Shown here: piece after piece, positions 24,378 to 57,971 of the stretch
Numbering within the stretch: position 1 is the stretch's first letter
Layout of the letters: every line of letters starts with the position of its first letter
DNA from: Candidatus Thorarchaeota archaeon
GTDB lineage: Archaea; Asgardarchaeota; Thorarchaeia; Thorarchaeales; Thorarchaeaceae
Assembly (NCBI GenBank): GCA_003345595.1
Contig: PRDI01000050.1
Span: 1 to 58,866 of the forward strand
DNA length: 58,866 nucleotides
Reading direction: 5' to 3'
The notes under the pieces: generated by a model
What the model saw: the letters and a program-made list of their open reading frames with translations, nothing else
The model's database searches: none
Told to the model about the DNA's origin: nothing
Translations under genes and position numbers: made by a program

Positions 24378-24633
24378 CCGGTAAGATGTCGTTTTCGGTA
24401 GGAGTCACTTCCTGTGTACGCCACGGCTGGCGCCACTTTCTCATGCTTTCCGCACGCAAGGGTGTGCGGAATGGTTCCGCTGGGTGTTCATGCCATGACG
24501 AAAGCTTTTTCTTCTGAAAGCTGACTCTGCGCTGAAGAGTCACCTAGGGGTTCAGTTCCTCAATCTCAGCACCCCCACCGAGTTCAGGTCTCGGGAATCT
24601 TCTGTACAGTCGGTTAGGCAGACCTGTCTATAG

Positions 24634-25260: not shown

Positions 25261-25262
25261 AC

Positions 25263-27170: not shown

Positions 27171-27194
27171 TCGTATTAGCGAAGGTGACCATCG

Positions 27195-42105: not shown

Positions 42106-43095
42106 TCAGACCCATTGTTCCAGTGTGGATTGTACATTTCTGAACTCGCGCCATGCTTTCACGGTTCGTTCTGCAACAGACTGGCTCTGGTCGCTGCCGA
42201 TTGCCGGTATGAGGGTGTCGATTATTCTGGAAGCGATTGGGGGTCGAATGGTCAGGTCGACTCCTCGGAGTGAGATACGGCACACCTCGTCGAAGATCTC
42301 TCTTGCTCGCATAAACTGCTCCCTTTCTATCGGGCCACAGCCATGTGCTCTGAGCACACTATCCAAGTTGCCGTGTCTTTTGAGCAAGACCGCACCTCGT
42401 CTTGGTCCAACGCCTCTGAGTCCCTCGTTATGGAAATCGCACCCACACATGACCGCAAGGTCTCTGATTTGGTCAAGTCGAAGACCAAGTGTGGTTTCAA
42501 GATCGCCAAGAGTCGCTCGGAATACCCTTCCTCGCGATAGAAGCATCTGTCCCGTCATATGAGGGCTACCGAACAGCAGAGCATCAGCATCGGTCGAAAC
42601 TACAGTTCGAACTAGTGACTCTCGACACAATGCGGCGGCCAGCATCTCGGCTTCAGAGGGAGCTGTGCATGTGGGAATCCCCACTGCGCCTGCTAGGTCT
42701 CTAACGTGTTCCAGTGCGAAGTACATCCTGAGTGCAGGACTCTGGGTAAGGTTGGAGGATACATCAATGTCGAGCCGGTCGCCACTTCGCTGGAAGCTGA
42801 GATACAGGTCATGTGCTGTCCTAATCAAATCTGGGTTAGGTGCTCTCTTGAGGGTTTCAGGCGGGCCGTCGAATATCATTACGGGGAGTATGCCTGTCCG
42901 TAGTGTCATCGTGATGAGGCCAAGTCCAATACGGAGATGCCCTAGAGGAACTCCTTCCTTTCTCTTGCGGGTTTTCTCGATGACCGACATTCTCCGTGTC
43001 ATGTAGTTTGGCATGTCGATTGCTATCTTTCCGCGAATCTCGTCCGCGGAGGCCCAGACCCAAGGAAGCACGTTGAAGTTCTTGACACCCATCAC
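42106..43095 (-). CDS. fen: Flap endonuclease FEN1/XPG-family nuclease (divergent paralogue) with C-terminal PIP box
   Basis: MGV N-terminus, IAID, FDG, SEAE, TDAD, GCDF (all seven acidic metal ligands), H3TH GVGPRR, C-terminal QSTLEQW. Confidence 0.88.
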   Translation of the reverse strand: MMGVKNFNVLPWVWASADEIRGKIAIDMPNYMTRRMSVIEKTRKRKEGVPLGHLRIGLGLITMTLRTGILPVMIFDGPPETLKRAPNPDLIRTAHDLYLSFQRSGDRLDIDVSSNLTQSPALRMYFALEHVRDLAGAVGIPTCTAPSEAEMLAAALCRESLVRTVVSTDADALLFGSPHMTGQMLLSRGRVFRATLGDLETTLGLRLDQIRDLAVMCGCDFHNEGLRGVGPRRGAVLLKRHGNLDSVLRAHGCGPIEREQFMRAREIFDEVCRISLRGVDLTIRPPIASRIIDTLIPAIGSDQSQSVAERTVKAWREFRNVQSTLEQWV

Positions 43096-43102
43096 TGCAG
43101 CC

Positions 43103-43831
43103 TCACTTGAAACCCCGGATGCCTTTGGAGGTGATGCTGATGATCACTCCTTTGGGCGGCTGGGTCAGTGTACAGCGTTCAACGAATATGCTGACAAGGT
43201 CGTCACGAGCATCCAGTCTGCCGATCCTGACAACAGAGTCTACATTGTGAGCTACGATGTTGCCGCCTATAGGGGATGGTTGGCCTGATGTCCAGTCAAG
43301 TGATGAGTGGTCAGTCATAAGTACGTGCGTCCCGGTCTTGTTGACCATAGCCCTCAATTCCTGGAAGGTTCGGAATAGTTCTCGCTGTCTTCCCGCACTG
43401 GAAGGACCCCCGCTCATGTTGAGCACAGAGGTCAAGCTATCAATGACGACGATCCGGACGTCGGTCATTGCTGCTAAATCTGATGCGGCTTGTCTAAGGT
43501 CCGATAAACTCAGAAGCCGGCCAACTGCAATTCGGCCGAGGACTTCAGGCGCATCAGAACTTCCACACAGAGTCCTAGCAAGCGCCGGGCTGTAGTTGCT
43601 TGCCGCATCTAGAAAGAAAGACCGCCCAGTCTTCTTCTTTGCTGCACACACGGCTGCCAAGTGAGCAAGTGCGGTCAAGGGGCCTCGACCAGTTCCGTGT
43701 AGTAAGCTGATCTGTTGCGGGATGAGCAGTCTGCCCAAGACTGCATCCAATGCTCGCGGCAGTAGTGAGAAACGTGGTCCCTCATCCAGTTCAATCTCAT
43801 CAAGCGGTCTTTGGTACATCAATCCCAACAC
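43103..43831 (-). CDS. RecA/RadB-like paralogue with degenerate Walker A (probably ATPase-dead)
   Basis: ALDAVLG, HGTGRGPLT in place of GxxGxGKT, FLDA, VVIDSL Walker B, PIGGNIVAHNVD (RadA-type GG..+.H motif). Confidence 0.78.
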   Translation of the reverse strand: MLGLMYQRPLDEIELDEGPRFSLLPRALDAVLGRLLIPQQISLLHGTGRGPLTALAHLAAVCAAKKKTGRSFFLDAASNYSPALARTLCGSSDAPEVLGRIAVGRLLSLSDLRQAASDLAAMTDVRIVVIDSLTSVLNMSGGPSSAGRQRELFRTFQELRAMVNKTGTHVLMTDHSSLDWTSGQPSPIGGNIVAHNVDSVVRIGRLDARDDLVSIFVERCTLTQPPKGVIISITSKGIRGFK

Positions 43832-44771
43832 CCCGAACGACTGAGTAGTCGCGGAAAAGCACGGTATCCACTTCGAAACCCATCGGTATTGCTTCGACTT
43901 CTATGCCGGGCACTGCGGACTCCGGCACGATCACCCTGAGGCCCTTCTTGGTGGGTACAACAGTCATCCTCTCCGGCCAGAGTGATAGGAGGTGGGTCAC
44001 GGTTGCCTCGCCTGCGGCTATTCGATAGTCTCGTATGTGTAATCCGTAGTTCTCATCGACCAGAGGTAGCATGAGCACAGCTTCTGCTAACAGTGGAGAA
44101 GCTGGTTTCGTGCCTTCGATTTTGGCTTCACTGAGTGCAGCATTGACCTGCTCGGGTTGATGCGAATCCGAGTTCGTGGATACAACTAGAGCACAACACT
44201 GGTTCAAGCATGTCAATGATACCGGCAGAAGGGGTCTGTCTCGCAGTAGCTGTACGACTGAATTACGTGCCTGATGCGGAACAATGATGACTCTGAACAT
44301 GCTCTGCAATAGCTCGGACCAATGCACTGCCGTCGAGGGCTTGATTCTACCTGACATGATCCCTATACGGAGAGAGGTTGAGCGTGTTTTCAGGAGCGGA
44401 GCTTTCGATGCAATGGGCAACGAATCTGTCACTAGGGAATATACTGCAGCGGTTGCGGCCGCAGCCGCAAACGACCAATGGATTCCCCACGGTAAAACTA
44501 CCAGGAATGAAACTGCGACCACATAGCCAACTGCACCGAATGCAACGATGACGAGCGGCGAAGGGACTTTCCGTCGCCTATGGCATCGCCGCGTCAGCCA
44601 TGATAGTATGAACGCAACCGATGCAACCATGACGAAGGGCACTGAGTTACCATTCCTGGTGGCTAGGACGATACTCACAACTGATGCGAGCAATTGAGAT
44701 CCCCCAGCCAGGGCCAGAGCAATAGTGACAGCAAGTCCGACTGCCTTGTAAAGGAATCCACCGAACATCAA
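43800..44771 (-). CDS. Membrane protein (about 4 N-terminal TM helices) with soluble C-terminal domain
   Basis: Four hydrophobic segments in aa 5-115; abuts or overlaps both neighbours. Confidence 0.7.
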   Translation of the reverse strand: MMFGGFLYKAVGLAVTIALALAGGSQLLASVVSIVLATRNGNSVPFVMVASVAFILSWLTRRCHRRRKVPSPLVIVAFGAVGYVVAVSFLVVLPWGIHWSFAAAAATAAVYSLVTDSLPIASKAPLLKTRSTSLRIGIMSGRIKPSTAVHWSELLQSMFRVIIVPHQARNSVVQLLRDRPLLPVSLTCLNQCCALVVSTNSDSHQPEQVNAALSEAKIEGTKPASPLLAEAVLMLPLVDENYGLHIRDYRIAAGEATVTHLLSLWPERMTVVPTKKGLRVIVPESAVPGIEVEAIPMGFEVDTVLFRDYSVVRGVGIDVPKTA

Positions 44772-44772
44772 G

Positions 44773-45438
44773 TCACCACCTCACTGAGGCTGACAGCGAA
44801 ACTTCTACAATCCCTGTTTCGAGTAGCTTGATCTTTCCCAGCGGTACCTCTAGACCAGCGCGATTCGTGCCGATGATTGTGGAATAAGGACCAATCGCGT
44901 CCCTCCGCACGGCAAGATCATGATCGACCCACTGTTTGATGGTCTCATGATGCACAGGACAGGTGATGGCACCGTCGATGACTCTGTTCTCGCTAATGAC
45001 GACTACTTTCACACCGCTGCTGACAACTCCTGCAAGAGTCGGCAGAACTTCCTCGATGAGTTCCTGTCCCCATAAGGTCGGGTTGAGGCGGGCCATGTCA
45101 ATCACTCTTGTGACCGGGTCCACGACCACCAGCGACGTGAGTGGTGTGATCCGGCTTGCCACATTCATGACGCAGTCGCGCGATTGGGCATAGTCCAGAG
45201 TGACAAAGGTTGTCACAGCGGACATCTTGCCGCCACATGCTTTGACGTTCCGCCTTAGATGTTTCACAAACGACATCTTGCCATCTGTGTTGATCCATTC
45301 TACTGCGGAGCTTACGGACTCGTCTGCCGCAAAGGCGACTGCAAGAAGAGTCTTGCCTGATCCAGCAGGACCCCAAATGTGGGTTAGACCCTCTAAGCCC
45401 ATTGAGTGCATTAACCTGGCATCATTCTTCCGCATCAT
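44773..45438 (-). CDS. RadB-like RecA-superfamily ATPase
   Basis: HIWGPAGSGKT Walker A, WINTDG, LVVVDP Walker B; no N-terminal HhH domain. Start taken at 45438 (45411 also possible; track start 45531). Confidence 0.8.
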   Translation of the reverse strand: MMRKNDARLMHSMGLEGLTHIWGPAGSGKTLLAVAFAADESVSSAVEWINTDGKMSFVKHLRRNVKACGGKMSAVTTFVTLDYAQSRDCVMNVASRITPLTSLVVVDPVTRVIDMARLNPTLWGQELIEEVLPTLAGVVSSGVKVVVISENRVIDGAITCPVHHETIKQWVDHDLAVRRDAIGPYSTIIGTNRAGLEVPLGKIKLLETGIVEVSLSASVRW

Positions 45439-47191
45439 CAAGGCCCCACATTCTCTCTGCCTCTTTCGGGTCTGATACAGAAACTTCTCTCTCAGGAACT
45501 GGACCTGCCGAGGACTCGGATGGGCGTCCACTCATCCCTGCGATTCTAGCACTAACGATGTCTGCAGCTCGCTTGGGAGGTTCGAAGCCATCAGGATTAT
45601 CGCTTGTTTCGGCATCGGAACTCATGTCGTGCTCGCTAGACGTGAGGGTGCGAGTTGCTGATGTTAGATCTGGTTCACCTGGCCGGGAGTTCCTGCGTAT
45701 GGACTCGAAGAAGTCTGATGTGGCCTCATGTCCTCTAAGAGCTGTAGAGGGTATTCCCTCAATTGTGTGCACAGCATCATCTCTCGTCGCAAGGACCGGG
45801 ACTGGAGTTGCAGTTTCTTCTTCTTCGGGCTGTGTCAGCATCTCGCCCAGCCTTTCCGCCGTCTCAGACATGGCCCTAATGTTCATCAGGTCGTCAATCG
45901 CGTTCTTGACGTCGAAACGAAGGACACCGATATCATAGAGTGAGTTGTTGAGTAGACCAATGTGACTCACGGCCTCCCCGAATGTCATGGGATTAGACAA
46001 GTGTGCAGTCAGTCCTACATACATCAGAGCGAGCATCTCCTCATTCGCATCAGACCCTAGGTGTCGCAGTAGGCAGAGGAATCTCCCCAGTCCCATGTCT
46101 GAGGTTCTGATTGGCGTGCTTTCATCAGGCTCTTCAGCTGGGGCGAACCTTACACACTCGTCGAGCACAGAGCATGCCAAGCTCACTGCATGATCCGTAT
46201 TGCCAGACTCTAGGGCCTCTCCCGCGGCTGCCATTAGCGGTGTCACTGTGAAATGAAGATCCCCTACAAGCCGCAATGCCTGCTCGTTCTCTGAGACCGC
46301 CTTCGATATTCTACTCCAGTCACCCAAAGCAGACACATGCGAGCGTTCATGTTTCACCTTGGATTCGAAGAGTCGGAGTTGCTTTCTTGAGACTGCCAGG
46401 AGGAAGGCACCAGCGATACCCCCTGCGGCTGTCAGCAGAAGTGGTAGTAGAAGCCCACCGGATCCGGTAATGGCCAATTCAATACAGGTCAGCGCACCAG
46501 CCACGGAGAAGACAGAGGACAAAACACCGTACCATCCTCGCTCCACTGCGTTCTGAAGTCCGCTCCACTTGTCGCCAGCTATTCCCCTCCTTACGTCTGG
46601 AACTATGGACCTCATATCACTCTGGCATGCAAACGAAAACTCTTCCGGCCTCACTATTCTTTTCTGGTCTGTTAGCCAGCCGAGATCATTAAGAGGACGG
46701 ACACCTTCGGCCACAACGTAGACTGTTCTCGTTTCGTGCATCATGGAGCTTCCCTTCTCATTCAATGAACGAAGGAGCTCCAGTCGAACACGTCCCCAAG
46801 GTGTGGCAATCGCTCTCTTTCTTACAAGTCCATCGAGCCCGACATCGGTAAGTATCCTCGCCAAGGGCCTGGTCACGGCATCTAGCACTTCGGCTTTCAG
46901 GCCAAGATCGCTCTTACCAGAGCGGCAAGAGCGCATATCGAGTACAAAGACGACAGCAAGGTGAACACCCCCTGTACCTGGGATTGCTTGTAGCCGTACT
47001 CCCACGGTAATGCCACTTGGGTATTGGCAGGTGTGGTGTTGAGTGCTGCGCAGGACGCCAATGATGTCCTGTTCCTTCGATGGTTCTTTTGGCACCCGAC
47101 TCCCCCCAGCTGAGGCAGCCGGAATCTCTGTTCTCTTCTCAGGCAGACTCATTGTGCTCATATCCTCCATTGTCACTACCGGTTGGTCCAT
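45422..47191 (-). CDS. Hypothetical protein with central TM hairpin, helical C-terminal domain and acidic disordered tail
   Basis: Two hydrophobic helices (WYGVLSSVFSVAGALTCIELAI; LLLPLLLTAAGGIAGAFLLAV); start may be a downstream Met. Confidence 0.7.
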   Translation of the reverse strand: MDQPVVTMEDMSTMSLPEKRTEIPAASAGGSRVPKEPSKEQDIIGVLRSTQHHTCQYPSGITVGVRLQAIPGTGGVHLAVVFVLDMRSCRSGKSDLGLKAEVLDAVTRPLARILTDVGLDGLVRKRAIATPWGRVRLELLRSLNEKGSSMMHETRTVYVVAEGVRPLNDLGWLTDQKRIVRPEEFSFACQSDMRSIVPDVRRGIAGDKWSGLQNAVERGWYGVLSSVFSVAGALTCIELAITGSGGLLLPLLLTAAGGIAGAFLLAVSRKQLRLFESKVKHERSHVSALGDWSRISKAVSENEQALRLVGDLHFTVTPLMAAAGEALESGNTDHAVSLACSVLDECVRFAPAEEPDESTPIRTSDMGLGRFLCLLRHLGSDANEEMLALMYVGLTAHLSNPMTFGEAVSHIGLLNNSLYDIGVLRFDVKNAIDDLMNIRAMSETAERLGEMLTQPEEEETATPVPVLATRDDAVHTIEGIPSTALRGHEATSDFFESIRRNSRPGEPDLTSATRTLTSSEHDMSSDAETSDNPDGFEPPKRAADIVSARIAGMSGRPSESSAGPVPEREVSVSDPKEAERMWGLDDAEE

Positions 47192-49319
47192 GACCTCGGG
47201 CGAGGTCCAAGGCCTGTATCATGTTCTCTGCTATCGTCACTACTGGAAGCAGTCCTCCTAGACGACCCACTGCATGAATAGAACGAAGCAACCAAGTTGT
47301 GGTTTCAATGAGCCCATTGATGTCTCCTTCGTGGAAACCAGATCTCTTTGCCAATTCAGAGATTGGTGCACGGTTCGATGTGATAGCGTCTATGAGTTGG
47401 TCATAGGACTCCCCTAGTGATCCACCGCTCTCAATACCGACCAGGTGTCTCAACAACCAGAGAAGCGAGGTCTTGTCTTCCGTTTGAGGCAAAAGAGCCA
47501 GCATCTCCCGAGCCGTAGGTATGCTGAGATACAGTCTGTTGATGAGGCGACCCAGCCTGGTAGGCTTCAGCTTCCCGGCGGTTCCTCCCTCGACAAGACC
47601 TAGCTTCAGAAGGATTCCGGCTGGGCTCGATTCACTGAGAGAGAGTGGTATTACGTAATCTGCAATAGCACCAAGTTCTGTGGCCGCTGAAGCTCCTAGC
47701 AGCAGAAGGTGTGAACACAACATGCCATGCGCATCGAGAGACCTGCCACAGGAGCATTGTGGTCCCTCGAGACATCCGGAGAACGAAGTGCGTGACGAGA
47801 AACGACAAGCATACTGCGAGCCGTCCCAGTCAGTGACAATCGCGCCGACCACGTTGTCTCCTTTCTCCCGGATGTCGACTGCTCCGAATGAACCCTGTTT
47901 TGCCGCTCGAACAGATTCCGGCAGGGCATGTCGTTCGATTGCCGCCTCGGCTGAGATTTCGCCTAGATTGAGCAGTCTCATGGGTGATTCTGCGTCTTGC
48001 ATAGCGCAGTGAATGAGGTACGAATCGTTCAGCAAACTATCTTCAACTTCCTCAAGTGAAGTCTCACCCTGTTCGTCAAGCGCGACTAGTAGTAGCTCTG
48101 TCATGGAGGAAGGAGTATTGAGCACGCTTCTTACCCTATCATACCTTGGGACAAGTAACACCTTTCCAGATTCTTCTACTTGGTCGAAGTACCTCTTCTC
48201 AGCCTCTTCGGCCTCACCCTCACTCCCTGTAAGAACGACTCCGAATCCCACTTTGTCATGGTTTGGTCTCCCGGCCCTGCCCAGCATTTGATGGAGCCGG
48301 TTTGCACTCAGCAGTTGTCCATGTTCCTTAGGTGTCTTCACGTTCGTGACCACGACAGTCCTTGCAGGGAGGTCCATACCTGCAGCGAGCGTCGTTGTCG
48401 CACAGACTACTCTAACCCTTCCAGTCTGGAACAAATGCTCGACGAGGCCGCGCGCGTTGGGCCCAAGGCCAGCATGATGAAAAGCTGTGCCGTCGTGTAG
48501 AACGGTTCTGAGTTCGGGCGGTAAGCTTACGCCCCAGTTCTCCACTGACCCGAGTTCGCTATCGAGTCTAGCCTTCTCCCCCTCTGTGAGCTGTCGGCCC
48601 ACGTCTGCAGCCAGCCGAAAACACTCCACCTCCGCCTCTCGACGAGTCCTCTGAAATACAATCGCTTGTCCATTGCTCTGTATGGTTGTCAAGACGAGCT
48701 CTCTGACAGTCTTGTCCTTGTTGCTCGTAGACAGGACTTTGCAGTGAAGTGGCACGGGTCTCTCATCAGATTCTATGAGCTCACACTGCAACCACTCTGA
48801 GAGATCCAATGGTGTTCCCACGGTGGCTGAGAGAGCAATCAGCTGAAGATCGTGAATCAGGCGTTTCAGTCTGATGATTGCACTCTCAAGCCGGGCTCCT
48901 CGCCGGACCTCTCCGAGGTTCTGAATCTCGTCGATGACTACAGTTCCCACGTCCAGAAGCCATGGGGCTCCGTGCCGAAGCAGAGAGTCTGCCCTTTCGT
49001 AGGTTGTGACGATGATGTCGCGGTCAGACAGTTCATTACCTTCATTCTGGTAATCGCCCGTGCTAAGTCCGACCCTGATGCCGTGACTTTCGTACCGTTC
49101 TCTAAGGCCATTCCAGACTTGAAGACCAAGCGCCCGCAACGGTACTAGATATAGGCCCTTCTTCCCTGCTATCACGGACCTGAGGAGTGCCATCTCCCCG
49201 ACAAGCGTCTTGCCTGACCCGGTGGGACTACATACCATGATGCTCTTTCCGTCAAGCAACCCCTTATCGATGGCAGATTTCTGGACTCCTCTTGGTGTGA
49301 CTCCAATGGAGTCCAGCAT
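47139..49319 (-). CDS. Hel308/Ski2-like SF2 DNA helicase with inserted SWIM zinc finger
   Basis: SPTGSGKT, PLRAL, TYE, DEIQ, LSAT, HHAGL, TTTLAAGMDLPA, QMLGRAGRP; CSC-x9-CSH insert; T.LGRLI.RLYL ratchet helix. Confidence 0.9.
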   Translation of the reverse strand: MLDSIGVTPRGVQKSAIDKGLLDGKSIMVCSPTGSGKTLVGEMALLRSVIAGKKGLYLVPLRALGLQVWNGLRERYESHGIRVGLSTGDYQNEGNELSDRDIIVTTYERADSLLRHGAPWLLDVGTVVIDEIQNLGEVRRGARLESAIIRLKRLIHDLQLIALSATVGTPLDLSEWLQCELIESDERPVPLHCKVLSTSNKDKTVRELVLTTIQSNGQAIVFQRTRREAEVECFRLAADVGRQLTEGEKARLDSELGSVENWGVSLPPELRTVLHDGTAFHHAGLGPNARGLVEHLFQTGRVRVVCATTTLAAGMDLPARTVVVTNVKTPKEHGQLLSANRLHQMLGRAGRPNHDKVGFGVVLTGSEGEAEEAEKRYFDQVEESGKVLLVPRYDRVRSVLNTPSSMTELLLVALDEQGETSLEEVEDSLLNDSYLIHCAMQDAESPMRLLNLGEISAEAAIERHALPESVRAAKQGSFGAVDIREKGDNVVGAIVTDWDGSQYACRFSSRTSFSGCLEGPQCSCGRSLDAHGMLCSHLLLLGASAATELGAIADYVIPLSLSESSPAGILLKLGLVEGGTAGKLKPTRLGRLINRLYLSIPTAREMLALLPQTEDKTSLLWLLRHLVGIESGGSLGESYDQLIDAITSNRAPISELAKRSGFHEGDINGLIETTTWLLRSIHAVGRLGGLLPVVTIAENMIQALDLARGHGPTGSDNGGYEHNESA

Positions 49320-49341
49320 CTGATGAACATGTATTGAGAGA

Positions 49342-51702
49342 TCAGAAACCGCCGATATCTTTGGAGCCCTCCTTGGTTTCTGTCTCTCGGAGCAGCATTG
49401 TGCCCTTCATCGTGATCCTGTAGTTTGTGTATGAAACGCCAGCATGGAGTTCATGTCCACGAAGAATGAGACCTGCCCTCTCAAGTCGCGTTATCACACC
49501 CTGGACATCGTCGCTTGCGCTTCCTCCGCTTGAAACGATGAACCTCTTGACTGCCTCTTCGGTCAGCGGCTCATACTTCATGAGTAGACGTAGAACGCGC
49601 AATGCGAGGTTTCTCTCTCCTCCTGCGACACAATCCAGAAGAGAGTCGGGACCGTGGGGTGACTTTACCGTGTCAGCTCGGAGTACTTGAGCGAGTCTGC
49701 GAATCATCTCGTCCTCGGTCAGCGGACGAATGTCAGACTGAGGAAGGCTGAGCTTGACGGGCATGCAGGTTTGCGAGCCACCGCGTATCATGAGCGCCAC
49801 TCCGGGTTCCATTACCCTGAGGAAGGAAGTTTCCCGCATACTCTGACGTGACTTGCTGTGAATACCCGTGGCAATCACGCTGAGACCCAGAAAATCTATC
49901 GCAACCTTGAGGTCCATTCCCTCTCTCAGCTTGAGCGAAACAAAGGATGAGAGGACTCCGAGAGCTCCGGATGACATGTCTGCAGGATGGTCGAGGCCGA
50001 CAATAATCGGCCCCCTCCTCTTGAGCGTTCGCAGCAGTGTTTCGGACCAGACATCTCGGTTACCGTATTGCCTGTTGCGTACTCTCAAGTTGTCTGGGCT
50101 ATCGAGAATCACGATCAGATTCTCATCATGAGTGAGGCCAGCAAGCTTGACGCATAGGAGATCCCATGCGTATCTGTCCAATGGAGGCGACCCAAGGGAA
50201 AGAAGCAGGACTGCAAGAGGCACTTCTGTGAGGACACTCATGGGCGCAGTCTGACACCCGTAGAATGCTCTTGCACCTGAACCTTGGTGCAGCATGCGAA
50301 TTGCGTTGATCCCAATCAGAGAGACCTTGGAGTGGCCCTCTACAACAGGAATGTTTGAGTCTGGAGTGTTTTCAGTGTCAGACGAATCTCCTAGGTGAAC
50401 ATCAGCGACAGTCGCATTACCAAGTGCCACAGCCTTGTTGAGCGCAATCTCAAGATCGACTGCCCCTCGCAAGTCCATGCCGCAAAGTACCTCAAGTGTT
50501 GTCAGTAGTTGCGGAACATATTCGCTTCGAGGAGCCCCGTCTGGATCGATTGGGTTCAGGACTAGATTCCTGCCCAGCTCCAAGCTGATGCCTTGCTCTG
50601 AGAGTGCTGCGATATCCACGGCCTCGCGATCACCAGTAGCAAAGAGAACGCGCTTGCCAGAATCGAGGAGCCTGTCGATGATGACCTTCAACAGCTCTTT
50701 TCTCTCTGACTGACCTCCCCCACAGATGAGCAAGCCTCGTTCAAGATCGCTGTCTGCGAGTCCAACCGATGGGCCCAACCTTAGCGTTTCAGGATTGATA
50801 GACACTCCAAGAGCGTAATCTGCCTCGTCTGATCTGATCGGAGACACAAACTCGGCTGGTACGCTTGCGCCCACCTCTGGTGCGAGTTCGCTTGGCAGCT
50901 GGACTAGCCATTCAGAAAGCTCTGATCCAGCTGCATAGAAGGATGTCAGACCGTGATCGACCTCCACCTTCCTGAAACGGTTACAGAGGCCGTTGGCACT
51001 GACTCTCTGCCACTCGCGCTCCGGTATAGCGGCTCTCATGGCTGACTCGAATCCGGATAGATCCTCAGGTCTCTTGCCATATCCAACAGCTAGGACGCCC
51101 GTACTCCACATGCCGCCTCGTCTTGCCGCATAAGCACCGACGGCATCCTTGGAGAGGTTATCCAAGAACGAGGCCAATGAATCTGATAATCGGTCTTTCT
51201 GCAAGATGTTCTCGATCTTCTCAGGCTTCATCGAAACAGACACGAACAGACCCATCGAGTCATCCATTGCTCTGATGAGTGCACCGAGGTCTCCGACAAG
51301 ATCAGATCCTGCCGAGTCCAGTCTCATTGCAGCAGCAAACTTCCGTCCCCTTACGTCTCTCACTTGTACTGAGCCCTCGACAAGTGAGAACCCGACATCA
51401 CCTGTACGTACGCTCTTCCATTGGTCGTTTACTGATTGTCTGGATCCTGACGACCCCATCGTGCGGGTCACAATGATGATGCTGATGAGCACGGTCGCTG
51501 TGCCAACAAGCACAACGTCGGGATACCATATTCCCGTAACAACTGTCACCGTTGAAACCAATGCAACCAGTGATAGTGAGTGTCCGACTTTCCTGTTGTC
51601 CCACCTGATTTCTGTGCTAGGGGTCGCTCCCTCTCCTTGCCGAGCTCTGTCCTTGAATGGGTCGAAAGCGGGCTCGGGACCCAGCACAAGTCGTCTACTC
51701 AT
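49342..51702 (-). CDS. Membrane-anchored HerA/VirB4/FtsK-like protein with degenerate ATPase motifs and C-terminal winged helix
   Basis: Two N-terminal TM helices; RGLLICGGGQSERK (Walker A position), LGRNLVLNPID, LIVILDSPDNL (Walker B position), LRTLKRRG.IIVGLDHPADM (R-finger/TQ position), FLRVMEPGVAL; C-terminal wHTH ending YRITMKG. ATG 51702 follows GGAGGAGG. Confidence 0.68.
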   Translation of the reverse strand: MSRRLVLGPEPAFDPFKDRARQGEGATPSTEIRWDNRKVGHSLSLVALVSTVTVVTGIWYPDVVLVGTATVLISIIIVTRTMGSSGSRQSVNDQWKSVRTGDVGFSLVEGSVQVRDVRGRKFAAAMRLDSAGSDLVGDLGALIRAMDDSMGLFVSVSMKPEKIENILQKDRLSDSLASFLDNLSKDAVGAYAARRGGMWSTGVLAVGYGKRPEDLSGFESAMRAAIPEREWQRVSANGLCNRFRKVEVDHGLTSFYAAGSELSEWLVQLPSELAPEVGASVPAEFVSPIRSDEADYALGVSINPETLRLGPSVGLADSDLERGLLICGGGQSERKELLKVIIDRLLDSGKRVLFATGDREAVDIAALSEQGISLELGRNLVLNPIDPDGAPRSEYVPQLLTTLEVLCGMDLRGAVDLEIALNKAVALGNATVADVHLGDSSDTENTPDSNIPVVEGHSKVSLIGINAIRMLHQGSGARAFYGCQTAPMSVLTEVPLAVLLLSLGSPPLDRYAWDLLCVKLAGLTHDENLIVILDSPDNLRVRNRQYGNRDVWSETLLRTLKRRGPIIVGLDHPADMSSGALGVLSSFVSLKLREGMDLKVAIDFLGLSVIATGIHSKSRQSMRETSFLRVMEPGVALMIRGGSQTCMPVKLSLPQSDIRPLTEDEMIRRLAQVLRADTVKSPHGPDSLLDCVAGGERNLALRVLRLLMKYEPLTEEAVKRFIVSSGGSASDDVQGVITRLERAGLILRGHELHAGVSYTNYRITMKGTMLLRETETKEGSKDIGGF

Positions 51703-52015
51703 GCTTTGCCTCCTCCTCAACCGGAAACCAGCTGAAGTCTTGCCTCTGAAGGATCTCGAGAACTCTCCTGAACCGCTCTGCGTACACAGGCCCTCCGCCA
51801 GCCATCACGAGCGTCCTGTTACTGGTGAGCAAGAGCTCGGGCATGTTTTCACCATGTGAAGGTGCACCGTAGGCAATGAGCACAGGACTCCGGGACAAGA
51901 CTATCCATTGGTAGCCGTGTCCTTTCTGTAGTGCATCCATGAGCGTCTGAGGTTTGACCCCTCTCGGCAGGTCTACGCCGGTTCGATCACTTTGAGGACT
52001 GCTCATCCTGTTCAA
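51695..52015 (-). CDS. Hypothetical protein (106 aa)
   Basis: AAGGAGG SD; overlaps both operon neighbours. Confidence 0.62.
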   Translation of the reverse strand: MNRMSSPQSDRTGVDLPRGVKPQTLMDALQKGHGYQWIVLSRSPVLIAYGAPSHGENMPELLLTSNRTLVMAGGGPVYAERFRRVLEILQRQDFSWFPVEEEAKHE

Positions 52016-52601
52016 TTCCTCCTTTGACTGCCCTCATGATATCGTTGAGCCCTGCGTTCTCGATTGGAATGTGGGGGTAAGCAGTCCTCATTGCCTTCTC
52101 AAGTATCATCACGTCAGCAGACAGGTCTTTCGACAGCTTCTGCGCTATCGCAGAGGCATTGCCGACTCTGAGGCAGGTCCTGACAATCATCATGCCGATA
52201 ATTGTTGGCCCCTGCCCGAGGGGTCTGTAGAGAAGAAATCTCACCGAGCCGTTCTTACTCTCAGACAGCCTCGCGTGCATTGCCTGTAGCACTCGGGAAG
52301 CAGCATGGCTCAGGTCTATTCCAAGAGGCACACTAGTCATAAGTCTGGCTCCGAATGCCTCAAGTTTCCACGTCCTGACAAGGGCCAGTACTCCATACCT
52401 CTCGTTCCACAGCATCATCGGCGTCCCAGATGACCGCTTAGCTACGACTATCAGGACCGTTGTGAGCAGGAGTCCGATTACTGCTTGCTGCGCTTGAACA
52501 AGCCGCTGGCTTCCAGCCAATAGTGAAAGGAACCAGATAGCTAGCAGAACCGAGGCAATGATCCATCCATCAGACAATGGTTCATTGTGCATCAATACCA
52601 T
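51987..52601 (-). CDS. Membrane protein (2 TM) with soluble alpha/beta domain
   Basis: Two N-terminal hydrophobic helices; GGGAGG SD; overlaps the XPD stop. Confidence 0.7.
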   Translation of the reverse strand: MVLMHNEPLSDGWIIASVLLAIWFLSLLAGSQRLVQAQQAVIGLLLTTVLIVVAKRSSGTPMMLWNERYGVLALVRTWKLEAFGARLMTSVPLGIDLSHAASRVLQAMHARLSESKNGSVRFLLYRPLGQGPTIIGMMIVRTCLRVGNASAIAQKLSKDLSADVMILEKAMRTAYPHIPIENAGLNDIMRAVKGGIEQDEQSSK

Positions 52602-54546
52602 TCTCCTCCCTTCTCTTTACGAATCTGCTGATTGCGTATCTCAGCTCTTCTGAACCCTCATATGGCCACATGTCTGAAACCATATCTTCACTGAATACAG
52701 AAGTATACCTGAGGAATCGTCTGTCAAGAAGGACCGCGACCCCCCAGTCAGCGGGCGACCTCCTCAGACGACCTAGAAGCTGCGCGACTTGTCTTATAGA
52801 TGGAATGACACTTGCATAGTAGTACCCCATTCCTTGGCCGAATCTATTGTCGAACCATTGCTCCATCGCCTTCAGGTAGCTACTTGGCGGCGTGAACGGA
52901 ATGCCCACGCCTATGATAAGGTCGACCATGCTGGAGCCGCCCTGCGCTAGATCCACACCCTCACTGAACTTGCCACCATAGACGCAAAAGACAGCATGGG
53001 GACTGCTCTGAATCGCCTCGGCTACTGTTTCAATCCTCTCTTCTGGACTCTCCATGAGAGGTCTTCTGTGACCGGTGTGAACGTCATGACTCAGAACCTC
53101 ACGCATGATTGCATAACTGGGAAATGCGACCAATGCGCTCTTGTTTGCAGGCATCACCTCCAATACTCTCTGAACGGTGGCCGCGATCGTACGCCAGAGC
53201 TCATCGTTGCGGTCTTGGTACTTCGTGGTGATTCCTTTGTCGACAAGAACTAGCCGTGTCCCACGTGGATATGGGCTTGCCAAGTCTTCCATAAGGGCGC
53301 TCGAAACCCCCAGCAGCTTTGAGTAGTGCTCAAGGGGTCTGAGAGTGCCAGACATGAGGAGAGCAGAGCGAGCTTCCCTCAAAACCGGTGCAGCCAGGCC
53401 AGCGGAGTTCATGGGCCGAATGAATAAATCCGCATCAGAGCGGCTCTCCTCTTCCTGTAGCTGCTTGCGTTTCCTGATCATTGCATGCCAGTCATCGCTC
53501 TTGGCGGCCCTCGTCGCGGCGAGTAGGAATTCCAGCAACTTGTCAATGGGCGTTTCCGCCAAGGATGCTGCATCAGGGTCGCCCATTATTGGGTTGGTGG
53601 CATCCGTGAGCTGCTTCAGTGCTGCTTCTTCGATGAATCTGGGTGCCACATCCCACTTGTCAAGACGTTTCTCTAAACGCCCCTTCATGTCGTCAAGAGC
53701 TACCATCATGGTCTCCCAGAGAAACTCTATAGTGTCCCCCAACCAAGGTGCAGATGTTTCTCGCACAATCTCTGCGCGATGCTCTCTAAGCCATCTGAGT
53801 TCCTCCCAGCCTATCTTTGCGGTTTCTGAATCAAGGATATGAGAAGGGAGGTTGTGAGCTTCGTCAACAAGAACATCAACTTCTGGGAGGGCGTTTCCCA
53901 GAGACCCGAGAGTGGCATCCCGTACGCGCGAGCGAAACAGATAGCTGTATGGACCAATGACAATGTGACTATCCCTTGCGCAATGCCTCATCAGTTCGTA
54001 GGGGCACAGATCTCCCGTGCCTGCGACGCTTTCGACACGCTCTCGAGTGATAACACCTGAACCCAGCATTTCAGATATGGTGCTCCGCACGTGATCCCTC
54101 ACCTGTGTTCTGCCTTCTTGCTTCCTGTAGAAATTCCAGTAGCAGGTGCACTGGCCGCTCTTGACCATCAACACACAGGCCTTCATGAAGCCCATCGAGC
54201 TCAGTGGACGTATCTGCTCTTTGAGTGGGCACGTGTGGACTCTCGAGAGAAGAGTTGTTGCAGTCAAGGAGGGAAAACGTTGCCTCAGGACATCGAGTTC
54301 GTTTTCGAAGACTCGGGATTGGGAATGTGTTCTCGTGAGGACCATCAGCCTGCAAGTCCTATCATGTGCACGCGCCGCGAGATACCCGGCCAATACTGCG
54401 ATAGTCTTGCCAACACCGCAATCGGCAGAAAGGAATCCGACTCCTCCCTTTGAGAAGACCTGCGCAGCGAGAGTCACAGCTCGATCCTGAAACGGTCTGG
54501 GATTGTAGGGGAAGAACTGCATTGGGTTCATCGCTGCGACTGTCAT
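52582..54546 (-). CDS. xpd: XPD/Rad3/DinG-family Fe-S 5'-3' DNA helicase
   Basis: Q motif RPFQ, ADCGVGKT, RTHSQ, Fe-S cysteines (TCP..., C, C, CPY), DEAH, SGTL, GKFSEGVD, Q..GRLRR..D. Confidence 0.92.
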   Translation of the reverse strand: MTVAAMNPMQFFPYNPRPFQDRAVTLAAQVFSKGGVGFLSADCGVGKTIAVLAGYLAARAHDRTCRLMVLTRTHSQSRVFENELDVLRQRFPSLTATTLLSRVHTCPLKEQIRPLSSMGFMKACVLMVKSGQCTCYWNFYRKQEGRTQVRDHVRSTISEMLGSGVITRERVESVAGTGDLCPYELMRHCARDSHIVIGPYSYLFRSRVRDATLGSLGNALPEVDVLVDEAHNLPSHILDSETAKIGWEELRWLREHRAEIVRETSAPWLGDTIEFLWETMMVALDDMKGRLEKRLDKWDVAPRFIEEAALKQLTDATNPIMGDPDAASLAETPIDKLLEFLLAATRAAKSDDWHAMIRKRKQLQEEESRSDADLFIRPMNSAGLAAPVLREARSALLMSGTLRPLEHYSKLLGVSSALMEDLASPYPRGTRLVLVDKGITTKYQDRNDELWRTIAATVQRVLEVMPANKSALVAFPSYAIMREVLSHDVHTGHRRPLMESPEERIETVAEAIQSSPHAVFCVYGGKFSEGVDLAQGGSSMVDLIIGVGIPFTPPSSYLKAMEQWFDNRFGQGMGYYYASVIPSIRQVAQLLGRLRRSPADWGVAVLLDRRFLRYTSVFSEDMVSDMWPYEGSEELRYAISRFVKRREENGIDAQ

Positions 54547-55169
54547 TGGTCCTCCTCCACATGCAGCATAGATTCGCTTCTGTGTATCCGGAAGCGTATC
54601 GAGAAGTAGCTCTCCATGACCTCATTGAATCGCTGAATGTGTGCAGGTGAGTCATAGTGCTCTTCCTCGAGTGCCATTCTTTTGACAATGTCAGGACTGA
54701 AGCCCTTCCGCCTCGCCGCTACCCAGAACCAGTCTTCCACTTCTTTCATTGTCGAGAGTATGTGCGCAACCGTGTCCTCGATCAACGACATCAGGAACAT
54801 GACTGCATCCCTGGAGTTCTTGGGGAGACCTGATACATTGATGCCTGTGGGGAGGTAGGCCACGATTCCGTCATTGCTGTCCAAATGTATCTCACTTGGC
54901 ACTCCTCTTGTTCCTCTGAGCGTTTCCAGCAATGATAGGAGTCTTGGCAACTGCGACAGTAGCGGTTCTTTCGAGTCCCTGCCATGCCAGTCGATCCTGG
55001 ACACCACGAATAGCTCAGGATCTGGTCCGTCACTACGCTGAAGCGTAGCAACTCTATGCGATGTTTCTCTGAGCAGCAAGTTGGTCAAGTTGATCAACGA
55101 GCTGCTTAACACAGTCGAAGGAGTCTTGGGCACCCAGACCTCTGAAATCACGGCTTCAGTATCGGACAT
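54543..55169 (-). CDS. Hypothetical protein (208 aa)
   Basis: ATGA overlap with xpd and overlap with the upstream gene; no recognised motif. Confidence 0.7.
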   Translation of the reverse strand: MSDTEAVISEVWVPKTPSTVLSSSLINLTNLLLRETSHRVATLQRSDGPDPELFVVSRIDWHGRDSKEPLLSQLPRLLSLLETLRGTRGVPSEIHLDSNDGIVAYLPTGINVSGLPKNSRDAVMFLMSLIEDTVAHILSTMKEVEDWFWVAARRKGFSPDIVKRMALEEEHYDSPAHIQRFNEVMESYFSIRFRIHRSESMLHVEEDQ

Positions 55170-55614
55170 AAGTTCCCTTTCTCCCGGATAGTGTGATTTC
55201 GGAGCCGTCGTTCACAAGGCACCCGTCCGAAAGCATTGCGTCAATGAATGCACTTGCTTTGTCTTCATCAATGCCCGCGTCCGAACATTCCTGAAGTATT
55301 CGCATTATGCTCACGGGCCTGCCGCGGTTTGTATCCACCAAGGCCTCAACTATGTTGAGCACCCTTTTCCTCACTCCGTAGCTTCTTGGGTCTCCGCCCG
55401 GCAGGCTTCTCTGCGTGGAGTCTACAACAAGCTCTCTGATCATGGACTCGGCCTCTTCGACTGTTGCGGCGTACCTCGTAGAGGAACTATGGGGAATCTT
55501 GGCCTGACATAAGCTGCAGACAGAGCTGTCTTGGAAGTTCTCTACTGGAGCATATCCTACATTGCGGCATCTCGGGCATCTGTACACGCGGAGCAATCTC
55601 CTCTCCCCCATCAC
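55156..55614 (-). CDS. Zinc-ribbon plus winged-helix protein
   Basis: CPRC...CSLC Zn ribbon; C-terminal VLNIVEAL...PVSIMRILQECSDAGIDEDKASAFIDAM..DG resembles the MCM C-terminal wHTH. Confidence 0.75.
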   Translation of the reverse strand: MMGERRLLRVYRCPRCRNVGYAPVENFQDSSVCSLCQAKIPHSSSTRYAATVEEAESMIRELVVDSTQRSLPGGDPRSYGVRKRVLNIVEALVDTNRGRPVSIMRILQECSDAGIDEDKASAFIDAMLSDGCLVNDGSEITLSGRKGTYVRY

Positions 55615-56741
55615 TGCTCCTCCTCTTCATCGACCTCTTCCTTGACATCACCCTCGGATTCCTTTTCTGCATGAGCAGCTTTCTTCCTTTTCTTCCTCGC
55701 ACTCTTCTCTGAAGCAGCTTGCTCTTCCTCTCCACTCTGTGCGCTCCATCCTCTCATCTTGAAATAGTCGAGAATCCTGCTCTCCGTTTCCTTCTTCTCA
55801 TCGGTATCCATATAGAATCCGCCCCAACCCATCATCACTTCGACTTTGAACTCGGGTATGCCAGCGTTATCTTGAAGCTCGACGAGCCTCACCACGCCTG
55901 ACTTCCTTCTTGTGTAGAACCTGTAATCCGAGGCGTGCGAGATAACATGGCCCCCGGCCGGGGCGTTGGGATTTCCACCATAGATGCTGACCGTACTCAT
56001 CACTTGATTCGTGTACACGAATACTGCGTTTGTGGCAGCTGCGATACGTCTCATCTGGTTCAACAGCTGATTCATGGTCTGTTGTCTTGTGGTAAGTGCG
56101 TTGAGTCCTTTGTACTCAGCTCTGAAGAGCCCCGTTAATGAGTCAATCACAACAAGCTTGTAGTCCTGCTCGGCACATAGCTGGGGTATGCTTTCGAATA
56201 CATCTGTGATTTGTTCGCTGATCACTATGTGAGCCAAGCCTATGTTTCCTAGGGCTACGTCCGGGTCTAGGCCGAATCTCACTGCATTTGCTCGTATGAC
56301 CCAGGGTTTGAATGAGTTCTCCGTGTCCAACCACAGGATGCGGCCTTCGAGTCCTCCTTTCTCTCTAGGGAGTTGGGCAACGACTGCGAGCTGGCAGCAC
56401 CATTGGGTCTTGCCACCTCGCGCGGGGCCGTAGAACTCAACGATTGAGCCACACTCGATGCCGCCAAACATCTGTCTGTTCATTTCTTTGAGACCGCTGC
56501 TGAGGCGAGGCTTGGATGCCATCTCCTGCTCAACTTCAAGACCTGACTTGAAACCGCACAGGCCGACCAGCTGCCTTGCACTTCGTATGATCTTGAGTGT
56601 CGTACCCTCGCCAAGCTTCGTCTTCGTTGCCAGTTCGACCGGATTCTGAACTGCCAACAGTTCAGCAGTTGTTACAAGGACTTCCCGGAGCCTCTTCGAT
56701 GCGGCAGGACCCACACCACTTACAGCCTCAAGTTCGGTCAC
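55611..56741 (-). CDS. radA: DNA recombinase RadA/Rad51-family protein (full length, divergent) with charged C-terminal tail
   Basis: N-terminal HhH (GVGPA), GFKSG polymerisation motif, GGIECG, GPARGGKT, DTENSF, VVIDSL, FRAEY.G...L..RQQ, TNQV, GGHVISHAS. Confidence 0.9.
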   Translation of the reverse strand: MTELEAVSGVGPAASKRLREVLVTTAELLAVQNPVELATKTKLGEGTTLKIIRSARQLVGLCGFKSGLEVEQEMASKPRLSSGLKEMNRQMFGGIECGSIVEFYGPARGGKTQWCCQLAVVAQLPREKGGLEGRILWLDTENSFKPWVIRANAVRFGLDPDVALGNIGLAHIVISEQITDVFESIPQLCAEQDYKLVVIDSLTGLFRAEYKGLNALTTRQQTMNQLLNQMRRIAAATNAVFVYTNQVMSTVSIYGGNPNAPAGGHVISHASDYRFYTRRKSGVVRLVELQDNAGIPEFKVEVMMGWGGFYMDTDEKKETESRILDYFKMRGWSAQSGEEEQAASEKSARKKRKKAAHAEKESEGDVKEEVDEEEEQ

Positions 56742-57205
56742 AGAATCCCCTCCTTCACAAGTCTGTCAGCTATAGGCCCGCGCACGGGTACAAGGTTCAG
56801 GAAGGGCGCCAGCTCACACCGAGGAAGCAGGAATCCTCCCTTTATTCTCGCCAACGTGAACCCCGGAAGAAGGCCTGCAACACACTCCACGCTGGCGGAG
56901 GGCAGCTCTACCTTCAGACCTTGAGGGCATAGTCTGCCCGCAGTACTGATGTATCCTCCAAGTGTATCATAGCATGAGAAAGACTGTCCGTCGCCGTCGA
57001 CCATGCAGGCTCCGGGTTCAGCCGCCTCGATGCCCCCCAGATCATCCGCTGATTCATAGATATCTTCGATGAAGTTGTCCCATTCCCAGCCCTGTTTCTG
57101 TCGACCGACTACGTTGATACCCGCAATAGCTCCTGCCAGCCAGGCGATATGAGGAATACAACTGCTGCCAGCCTTGAGTCTTTCAGAAGCATCTTCACAC
57201 AACAC
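56738..57205 (-). CDS. Cys-rich hypothetical protein (155 aa)
   Basis: GAGG SD; overlaps both neighbours (GTGA overlap with radA). Confidence 0.65.
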   Translation of the reverse strand: MLCEDASERLKAGSSCIPHIAWLAGAIAGINVVGRQKQGWEWDNFIEDIYESADDLGGIEAAEPGACMVDGDGQSFSCYDTLGGYISTAGRLCPQGLKVELPSASVECVAGLLPGFTLARIKGGFLLPRCELAPFLNLVPVRGPIADRLVKEGIL

Positions 57206-57971
57206 TCTGGCTCTCTACCTCCTCGGTGCTCTCCAGGCCTCCAGCAACCTCGACTACCGGCGTTAGCTCATCCAGCCAGCTGACAAGGCTTTTGATTATT
57301 GGGTCCTCTGTCTGCGTCTGGTTCAGCACAGAAGTGATGAGCGACTTAGAAGTCACTACGACTCTCTCAAGGGCAAGTGCTCTGCTTGGGTATGTCATAG
57401 GTTTGAACCAAGGCATATTGACGAAACCTGATTCTCCTGCCAAGAACTCACGCCAATCGAAGTCCCATTCAGCGACACAGGGGTCGCGTCTGATTGTGCT
57501 CAACAGGACCTCAGTCCAGTCGGACCACCTTTTCATAAAGGCCCAGACAGACGTCGTGAGTGATCTCATGCTATCTGATTTCGAATCGGGCTGCCCCTCA
57601 AACACCAACACCAGGTGAGTAGCAACGCCCTTTGCGATAGCACTCACAGCTAGGCCGCTGTTCTGGTGGGCGACCATGAGTGAAAGACAGGGAACAAGAC
57701 TCAAGATGTCACATGGCTTGTACAGCCCACCCCTTCCGTTATCGAACCTCGCGAAGGGGGCTAGGATGTCGCTTCGCAGACCTACTACCATTGCCAACCA
57801 TGAGCCGCAACCGGGTCCTTGGTAACGAAGACGGGCTTTCACAACGTTGCGATCCGCATTATTGAAGACGACCTGCAAAGGCAGCGTTACATCGATAGTC
57901 CCATTGGCCGTGCGATACTGGCTACATAATGACAGGAGCTGTTTCTCTAGTTCGGCAATCATCTTGAGCAC
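57195..57971 (-). CDS. Hypothetical protein (258 aa), first gene of the operon
   Basis: Long ORF with a Trp/aromatic-rich motif (WDFDWREFLAGESGFVNMPWF). Confidence 0.7.
   Translation of the reverse strand: MLKMIAELEKQLLSLCSQYRTANGTIDVTLPLQVVFNNADRNVVKARLRYQGPGCGSWLAMVVGLRSDILAPFARFDNGRGGLYKPCDILSLVPCLSLMVAHQNSGLAVSAIAKGVATHLVLVFEGQPDSKSDSMRSLTTSVWAFMKRWSDWTEVLLSTIRRDPCVAEWDFDWREFLAGESGFVNMPWFKPMTYPSRALALERVVVTSKSLITSVLNQTQTEDPIIKSLVSWLDELTPVVEVAGGLESTEEVESQSVV

Follow-up and report, generated by a model that had tools for sequence, protein, structure and literature searches.

A conserved Thorarchaeota operon pairing spare recombination enzymes with membrane and surface proteins points to an undescribed DNA-handling machine at the cell envelope

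No known prokaryotes are more closely related to eukaryotes than the Asgard archaea. One contig of a Candidatus Thorarchaeota archaeon (PRDI01000050.1, assembly GCA_003345595.1; 58,866 nt, hereafter the window) carries an operon in which genes for recombination and repair enzymes stand among genes for membrane proteins, and the question it raises is what such enzymes do beside components of the cell envelope. An original prediction, made from the sequence alone, had read the operon (positions 42106-57971) as a candidate system for DNA import or exchange coupled to recombination. Comparative genomics, profile searches, and structure models of the encoded proteins point to an undescribed DNA-handling machine at the cell envelope. 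In a full-text literature search, neither the cluster nor a Hel308 with a SWIM finger turned up as previously described, in keeping with the earlier view that the arrangement is not a described system. The surface module embedded in the cluster, the SWIM hallmark that recurs across Asgard archaea, and the clade of RadA paralogs are additions of the present analysis. The genomes used were metagenome-assembled genomes throughout; the source genome is 2.7 Mb and 83% complete.

The operon comprises 15 co-directional open reading frames (ORFs), here g01 to g15, which the ORF listing of the window places on the minus strand from position 57971 down to 42106. They encode proteins of 258, 155, 376, 152, 208, 654, 204, 106, 792, 726, 589, 252, 323, 242, and 329 aa, respectively. 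Twelve of the 14 gene junctions overlap, by 4 to 53 nt (with the start of g12 taken as the ATG at 45438); the non-overlapping junctions leave gaps of 1, 7, and 22 nt. GGAGG/GAGG-type motifs lie upstream of most start codons, and the operon is translationally coupled. The listing and the junction measurements thus bear out the earlier description of 15 co-directional, mostly overlapping ORFs with Shine-Dalgarno motifs and the lengths given above, and profile searches agreed with the family labels it had assigned (RadA, XPD, Hel308, two RecA-fold RadB-like proteins, FEN1, and a HerA/VirB4-like protein). Four soluble proteins of the operon have no recognized family (g01, g02, g05, and g08), and the membrane proteins associated with it number six (g07, g09, g11, g13, f216, and a surface protein of ~2,600 aa, the last two encoded by neighboring genes described below). 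GC content is uniform over the whole window, in which neither a tRNA gene nor an integrase was seen, and no upstream operator or promoter motif common to the operon across genera was found.

Are the enzymes of the operon simply the housekeeping copies of the cell? The RadA, FEN1, XPD, and Hel308 of the operon are spare paralogs, and separate copies of each, including a better-scoring RadA, are encoded on other contigs of the same genome, as expected for the dedicated paralogous set that the original prediction had proposed. The gene g03 (55611-56741) encodes a divergent, full-length RadA paralog (Pfam Rad51, E 3.5e-55, and HHH_5) with an HhH N-domain, intact Walker A and B motifs (GxxxxGKT and VVIDS), intact L1 and L2 loops, a polymerization motif, and an additional C-terminal tail with an acidic end. 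It scored 236 against TIGR02236 (cutoff, 361), and in a profile search of its own genome it reached 188 bits, whereas the canonical RadA, which is encoded on contig C58, reached 324 bits. These membership features indicate that g03 is a genuine RadA/Rad51, yet not an ortholog of the canonical RadA. In each of four other Asgard genomes, a canonical RadA that scores better than the cluster-linked RadA is present as well; none was recovered in a fifth, G130. Cluster-linked RadAs from Thorarchaeota and two other families split from canonical RadAs in a maximum-likelihood tree of non-eukaryotic sequences (support, 93/85), in which long-branch attraction is possible. Their branches are several-fold longer than those of canonical RadAs, and the alignment shows that they share an extended C terminus that is acidic at its end.

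The helicases and the nuclease follow the same pattern, with motif conservation judged on about 16 orthologs per protein. The product of g06 (52582-54546) belongs to the XPD/Rad3 family of 5'-3' helicases (Pfam DEAD_2, HBB, and Helicase_C_2), and its best PDB matches are archaeal XPD proteins (139 bits). The four Fe-S cysteines (C106, C124, C133, and C181), the GKT motif, and the DEAH motif are kept in the ortholog alignment. We regard it as a divergent XPD paralog because its score against the rad3 subfamily model (158) lies under the cutoff (247); a second XPD on contig C75 is 27% identical to it. Similarly, g15 (42106-43095) encodes a divergent FEN1 paralog (Pfam XPG_I, E 1.5e-15) that scored 98 bits against the fen_arch model (cutoff, 352) and is 31% identical to a second FEN on contig C7. 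All seven acidic active-site residues are kept (D27, D76, E148, E150, D169, D171, and D220), and most orthologs end in a PIP-like (PCNA-binding) tail, Q[ST][ST]LExW[VIF]; a few have a degenerate tail or none.

The gene g10 (47139-49319) encodes a 726-aa superfamily 2 helicase of the Hel308 type (DEIQ) into which a SWIM zinc finger is inserted. It scored 346 bits against the NCBIfam Hel308-type model (cutoff, 887), and its best PDB matches are archaeal Hel308 proteins (246 bits), with the alignment confined to residues 13-382. The C-terminal half, where a typical Hel308 has its winged-helix, ratchet, and HhH domains, had no sequence match and bears the SWIM insertion. Helicase motifs I and II are intact, and the CxC...CxH of the SWIM finger is conserved in orthologs; the other Hel308-type genes of the source genome, on contigs C49 and C82, are without the motif.

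Two further genes encode RadB-like proteins of RecA fold, one with an intact and one with a dead P-loop. The first, g12 (44773-45531, likely start 45438), is an ATPase related to RadA (hhalign, 97%) that scored 28 bits against the RadB model and has a conserved GxxGSGKT P-loop. The second, g14 (43103-43831; Pfam Rad51, E 6e-9; hhalign to RadA, 99%), has HGxxRxPLT in place of GxxGxGKT in 16 of 16 sequences. Three features already noticed in the window, namely the SWIM finger of the helicase, the PIP tail of the FEN, and the loss of a working P-loop in g14, proved to be conserved in orthologs, the few FEN exceptions aside. Catalytic motifs of the operon enzymes are under purifying selection across the family, and because the spare copies keep these motifs intact, we consider them a working dedicated toolkit and not decaying duplicates.

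The facts so far fit a dedicated recombination machine built on a membrane platform, and they are compatible with more than one task for it. In the main rival to DNA intake or exchange, the platform would anchor DNA that is broken, cross-linked, or held at stalled forks, and the dedicated RadA, its mediators, the two helicases (of opposite polarity), and FEN1 with PCNA would mend it there, with no DNA crossing the membrane. That every recognizable enzyme is of a repair or recombination type, with its motifs intact, speaks for this possibility, as does the parallel between the combination of a Hel308/HELQ helicase, RAD51 paralogs, and a SWIM domain and the eukaryotic mediators of interstrand-crosslink repair and homologous recombination. 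The eukaryotic HELQ-BCDX2 and the SWIM-containing Shu/SWS1-SWSAP1 are mediator modules of this kind, and the SWIM finger in eukaryotes binds RAD51 paralogs. In the operon, as there, a recombinase and a helicase of the Hel308/HELQ type are found with paired RecA-fold paralogs, one active and one inactive, and with a SWIM finger. The operon differs in that the SWIM finger sits within the helicase itself and that a single prokaryotic operon encodes all of these together with membrane proteins; the likeness meant here is one of features. Membrane-tethered repair leaves unexplained the need for a complete second toolkit beside the housekeeping copies, and, in view of the evidence from the surface module below as well, we consider it somewhat less likely than intake or exchange.

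What might form a membrane platform? One candidate component is the product of g09 (49342-51720), a 792-aa membrane-anchored protein with two N-terminal transmembrane (TM) helices, an N-domain, a P-loop domain, and a C-terminal winged helix. It had no Pfam match. Searched against PDB, a profile of 20 sequences matched HerA-type NTPases (E 6e-5 and 3e-4; E 0.005 in another search), DUF87 (1e-3), and, weakly, the viral B204 packaging ATPase. Feature and structure neighbors in the ESM Atlas fell in DUF87, CedB, and VirB4-like clusters, with 70-100% of the structure neighbors being DUF87. Judged by sequence and fold, g09 is assigned to the HerA/FtsK/VirB4 P-loop superfamily of DNA pumps. However, its Walker A motif reads CGGxxxER, without the P-loop lysine, in 20 of 20 aligned homologs, including those of four other Asgard families, and the protein is predicted to be unable to hydrolyze ATP by the canonical mechanism. 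It is, in other words, a pseudo-ATPase. A side claim of the earlier work, that g07 is a paralog of the g09 N-domain, fell away: hhalign gave 1% for the pair and, with split Asgard N-domains added, 42% over 27 columns, a motif in common that does not establish homology.

According to hydropathy, the remaining membrane proteins of the operon likewise combine few TM helices (two each in g07 and g11 and three or four in g13) with large soluble domains. Such proteins resemble anchors with large non-membrane domains and not pores, and an ATP-dead g09 with a winged helix would suit a scaffold or a DNA anchor; both points favor tethered repair.

The superfamily to which g09 is assigned invites comparison with archaeal DNA import. 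Ced (Sulfolobales) and Ted (Thermoproteales) are described as DNA-import systems derived from domesticated type IV secretion, and the presence of HerA and Rad50 genes at Ted loci is interpreted as import coupled to recombination (PMC9905601). Like both systems, the Thorarchaeota cluster is archaeal and chromosomal and encodes a membrane-anchored protein of the VirB4/HerA superfamily along with small membrane proteins; like Ted, it has recombination genes at the locus. Unlike in Ced and Ted, the P-loop lysine is missing from g09, so the protein lacks the feature that defines an active VirB4/CedB ATPase. Nor was a VirB6/CedA-like channel of 6-7 TM helices or a VirB2/CedA1-like pilin recognized in the operon: the 15 genes reach a maximum of about four TM helices, the adjoining f216 has 5-6 with no family match, and as for a pilin, which would be small, with a pair of hydrophobic helices, g07 has two TM helices but a 140-aa soluble domain, and g08 has no TM helix. 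The Thorarchaeota operon, in turn, has a full set of spare recombination enzymes and a giant surface protein, both absent from Ced and Ted. The Ced analogy of the original prediction, taken as membership, therefore does not hold, given an ATPase that is dead in all homologs examined and membrane proteins of 2-4 TM helices.

Two other machineries offer partial likenesses. As in the archaeal herA-nurA-mre11-rad50 operon, a protein of the HerA superfamily is encoded beside recombination enzymes, but the HerA of that operon is a soluble, active hexameric translocase working with NurA, whereas g09 is membrane-anchored and ATP-dead, and the Thorarchaeota cluster has no NurA, Mre11, or Rad50. Bacterial transformation machinery includes the ComEC channel, the ComFA helicase, DprA, RecA, and the ComM/RadA helicases. 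The resemblance to it is a functional analogy (a membrane apparatus, a helicase that might pull on DNA, a strand-exchange protein with its dedicated loaders, and helicases for branch migration); the RecA fold is the sole homology, and the operon is without ComEC, a competence pilus, or DprA. By these comparisons, the operon appears nearest in concept to Ced/Ted or natural transformation while belonging to neither.

A pump fold that has lost its ATPase motif might also be a relic. One could picture the operon as what domestication has left of a conjugative or viral element: a former DNA-export module resembling type IV secretion, or a former replication-recombination module, that became fixed in the chromosome with its function reduced or changed. 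The fast evolution of the paralogs and their long branches in the tree would agree with such an origin, as would the VirB4/HerA-superfamily fold of g09. We nevertheless consider it highly improbable: the window has uniform composition and no visible integrase or tRNA gene, searches of viral contigs and plasmids gave no relatives of g09, catalytic motifs are under purifying selection across the family, and the flanks are syntenic.

How widely, and how strictly, is the arrangement kept? Of 85 genomes in the window's GTDB family, 53 matched the g09 profile. A sample of that family includes 19 genomes with a completeness of 90% or more, and g09 was found in 15 of them; in addition, genome G002 has a fragment of the operon at a contig end. 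Among 18 loci from relatives in the family, seven have all 15 genes in one order (23-72% identity). In the remaining loci the order is unchanged, with one or more genes undetected or the locus cut by contig ends. Gene order is also kept in a second family of the same taxonomic order, represented by genome G025, so the expectation that relatives would share it was confirmed. Independent variation of the membrane genes, which had been named beforehand as an observation that would speak against a common system, was not seen; they co-vary with the enzyme genes.

Beyond Thorarchaeota, a smaller core recurs. In other Asgard families, g09 homologs are shorter (~535 aa); the TM/N-domain part has a gene of its own upstream, and the P-loop is just as dead as that of g09. 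A dead HerA-like gene and a gene for a SWIM-Hel308 stand side by side in five other Asgard families sampled, and most of these loci have a divergent RadA or RadB-like gene as well. Two have a FEN paralog (f22 and f24), and two have a large membrane or secreted protein with an M28 domain (f21 and f12). The extra membrane proteins of these distant loci gave nothing above 32% against the profiles of g11, g13, and f216. Related clusters in other Asgard families adjoin genes for Imm5-like immunity, TPR, and LRR proteins (L048, 11851-12366, minus strand; L051, 6565-7323, minus strand), neighbors that hint at more variable, conflict-type surroundings than in Thorarchaeota.

Evidence for a task at the cell surface comes from two genes just downstream of the operon. 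The first, f216 (39381-40031, minus strand), encodes a 216-aa polytopic membrane protein of 5-6 TM helices by hydropathy and is syntenic in four related genomes (G003, G022, G012, and G014). The second (31436-39265, minus strand), syntenic in four genera, encodes a 2609-aa surface protein that begins with a signal or TM segment and ends in a TM helix followed by a tail of ~140 aa. Its Pfam match to Big_1 (Ig-like) is above the cutoff, and matches to Prenyltrans (an alpha-alpha-toroid), Filamin, and MG2 are subthreshold. In G014, both genes follow directly after the FEN gene; in the window's genus, a gene for a 624-aa protein lies between the FEN gene and this pair.

In G025 the pair is embedded in the operon itself. 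There the minus strand encodes, in order, RadA, orthologs of g04 and g05, XPD, proteins of 141 and 118 aa, an ortholog of g09, the SWIM-Hel308, an ortholog of g11, the f216 ortholog, a surface protein of ~2,600 aa, a RadB-like protein, a 404-aa protein, a second RadB-like protein, and a FEN-like protein, with stops and starts that overlap or abut. f216 and the 2609-aa surface protein belong with the operon. Because their counterparts lie inside the G025 operon, we take the functional unit to comprise ~17 genes and to extend beyond the cell; the 15 genes that the original prediction had delimited stand, and its extent (42106-57971) was drawn too short. The link to the envelope is likewise firmer than had been held, since the operon of a sister family has the gene for a giant surface protein within it. 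An extracellular component is hard to reconcile with repair of the cell's own chromosome, and tethered repair gives no role to the embedded extracellular and polytopic membrane proteins.

Two candidate identities for these proteins were rejected. f216 was proposed as an M50B/DUF3267-type membrane protease by an ESM Atlas lead (score, 0.84), but it is without HExxH and has no family match, and the surface protein has no CGEQ/CLEQ motif of a thioester alpha-2-macroglobulin.

Could the cluster instead guard against foreign DNA? A membrane sensor of entering DNA that directs helicases and a nuclease against the invader, as in defense systems whose helicase or nuclease is anchored in the membrane, would account for some of the observations. 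The helicase g10 scores against the PADLOC models for Hachiman HamB and BrxH, with E down to 2e-36, but it scores far better as Hel308 (346 bits). HerA-family NTPases occur in several defense systems, the best PDB profile matches of g09 are such proteins, and the distant Asgard versions adjoin the Imm5-like, TPR, and LRR genes described above. Against this, 8 of the 10 unknown or membrane proteins scanned had no PADLOC match, and g04 matched only weakly, at the Zn-ribbon region of LmuB (E 1.5e-4). With a strong match for the helicase only, the scan of ten proteins did not place the cluster among the anti-phage systems that PADLOC describes. Order and flanks are fixed and GC is uniform across the family, without the patchiness of an island, and the negative search of viral contigs and plasmids applies here as well. 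A strand-exchange recombinase, its mediators, and a PCNA-linked flap nuclease, moreover, make DNA and do not destroy it. A defense or conflict system is thus an improbable explanation, and for the same reasons (the fixed synteny and flanks, the lack of PADLOC matches for 8 of the 10 proteins, the lack of viral or plasmid relatives of g09, and the DNA-building character of the enzymes) both it and descent from a mobile element are disfavored.

We therefore tentatively favor an Asgard-specific, vertically inherited machine that couples DNA intake through the envelope, or exchange between cells, to chromosomal recombination. We do so because surface and polytopic proteins are embedded in the cluster, because its putative scaffold descends from DNA pumps and is anchored in the membrane as CedB is, and because Ted loci also carry recombination genes. 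In such a machine, the surface protein and the polytopic membrane protein would form the outward-facing part that touches another cell or DNA. The ATP-dead HerA/VirB4-like protein and three hairpin-anchored membrane proteins would form a ring or platform at the cytoplasmic face. As the pump is ATP-dead, motor work would fall to the dedicated helicases, SWIM-Hel308 (3'-5') or XPD (5'-3'), a role that we infer by analogy with ComFA of bacterial transformation. Incoming single-stranded DNA would be covered by a filament of the spare RadA, loaded by the active/dead RadB-like pair, and the PCNA-linked FEN1 paralog would trim flaps after strand invasion and synthesis. Assembly of these proteins into one complex, passage of DNA across the membrane, and the roles given to each enzyme are all conjectural parts of this scheme.

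Several observations weigh against DNA intake or exchange. The only protein of a pump family is predicted to be ATP-dead, and the operon showed no recognizable channel family (VirB6/CedA or ComEC), secretion ATPase, pilin, or nuclease of a strand-degrading type; its own membrane proteins have just 2-4 TM helices by hydropathy. Adjacency of the surface-protein gene could partly be inherited synteny. Finally, neither the operon nor f216 was found in four genomes of the family that are 85-92% complete. The system would then be dispensable; the joint absence of f216 and the operon is no independent evidence of a link, since the genes are adjacent.

The other proteins of the operon give few further clues to its task. 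The first gene, g01 (57195-57971), encodes a 258-aa soluble protein with an ortholog in the same place in 16 of 18 loci; it had no Pfam, NCBIfam, or PADLOC family, and its PDB profile search was empty. The soluble proteins g02 (155 aa, 56738-57205) and g08 (106 aa, 51695-52015) have syntenic orthologs, those of g08 in 14 loci, and no Pfam, NCBIfam, or PADLOC family. The product of g04 (55156-55614, 152 aa) has a four-cysteine Zn ribbon (C13, C16, C33, and C36, all invariant) and probably an MCM-type winged helix; profile matches to the MCM C-terminal winged helix (E 0.006-0.02) and to RpoP/Rpb9 ribbons are weak, and the sister-family ortholog was matched at 98% by hhalign. Of the Zn-ribbon and winged-helix fold proposed earlier for this protein, the ribbon is thus well founded in its conserved cysteines, and the winged helix has weak support (E 0.006). 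A soluble 208-aa protein, g05 (54543-55169), is always encoded just before XPD, in G025 as well, and belongs to the order-level core; its AlphaFold2 (AF2) model (pLDDT 81) had no structural match (VIA Z <= 6, Foldseek E >= 0.009).

Among the membrane proteins, g07 (51987-52601, 204 aa) has two N-terminal TM helices followed by a soluble domain and no Pfam, NCBIfam, or PADLOC family. An AF2 model of g11 (45422-47191, 589 aa; pLDDT >90 over residues 37-458) comprises an alpha/beta domain, a TM helical hairpin, a helical domain, and a disordered tail. Its fold search of PDB returned only generic helical hairpins (Z <= 10), and its sequence profile matched nothing there. The 323-aa product of g13 (43800-44771), with 3-4 N-terminal TM helices and a soluble domain, has no family, and its PDB profile search was empty. 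Overall, g01, g02, g05, g08, g11, and g13 had nothing in Pfam or NCBIfam, and g01, g05, g11, and g13 had nothing among PDB sequences. Identity of the membrane proteins with known transporters, which had been raised as a possible objection, found no match in Pfam, NCBIfam, PADLOC, PDB, or fold searches.

The surroundings of the cluster are themselves syntenic, with a GH3-like gene upstream and, downstream, the 624-aa gene, f216, the 2609-aa gene, and a 708-aa gene. In the window, the upstream gene is divergent from the operon (58568-58864, plus strand), runs off the window end, and is found in the same place in three other genera; the same position in G025 is held by a GH3-family acyl-adenylate enzyme (PF03321), co-directional with the operon and matched to the window gene by position. 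The 624-aa soluble protein (40216-42090, plus strand, convergent to the operon) has no family. Its gene is syntenic in most loci of the window's family and was not found in G014 or G025, and its membership is uncertain. The 708-aa soluble protein (29273-31399, plus strand, convergent to the surface-protein gene) also has no family; its gene is a kept neighbor within the family and was not found in G025. Farther downstream lie housekeeping genes (22549-28250) encoding a CitG-like protein, a Sir2 deacetylase, and grpE-dnaK-dnaJ, syntenic as a block only within the genus. Further large ORFs of the window encode 1061 aa (6525-9710, plus strand), 964 aa (10980-13874, minus strand), and 1588 aa (15903-20669, plus strand). 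On a 916-kb contig of G003 (L028 and L071), the orthologs of XPD, the helicase, and the giant protein are broken across frames; these breaks look like indel errors of long reads and not pseudogenes, since the genes are intact in every other genome.

Whatever its task, the operon offers a defined group of 15-17 conserved genes through which to approach DNA exchange and recombination in Asgard archaea. In it, membrane and surface proteins are joined to a second recombinase, an active/dead pair of proteins resembling RAD51 paralogs, a HELQ-type SWIM helicase, and a flap nuclease linked to PCNA, and under either reading it brings to light about ten protein families without a known fold match or function. 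A bolder proposal, which we think unlikely, is that of an ancient apparatus, Asgard-wide and spanning the envelope, that passes chromosomal DNA from cell to cell and recombines it. Built around a dead DNA-pump scaffold, SWIM-Hel308, a second RadA, and mediators resembling RAD51 paralogs, it would be a prokaryotic forerunner of the eukaryotic HELQ, RAD51-paralog, and SWIM mediators and of sex-like exchange. Transfer of DNA between cells, if that is what the operon does, would bear on the origin of sex-like exchange, and tethering of repair to the membrane, if that is its task instead, would add a new principle to archaeal genome maintenance.

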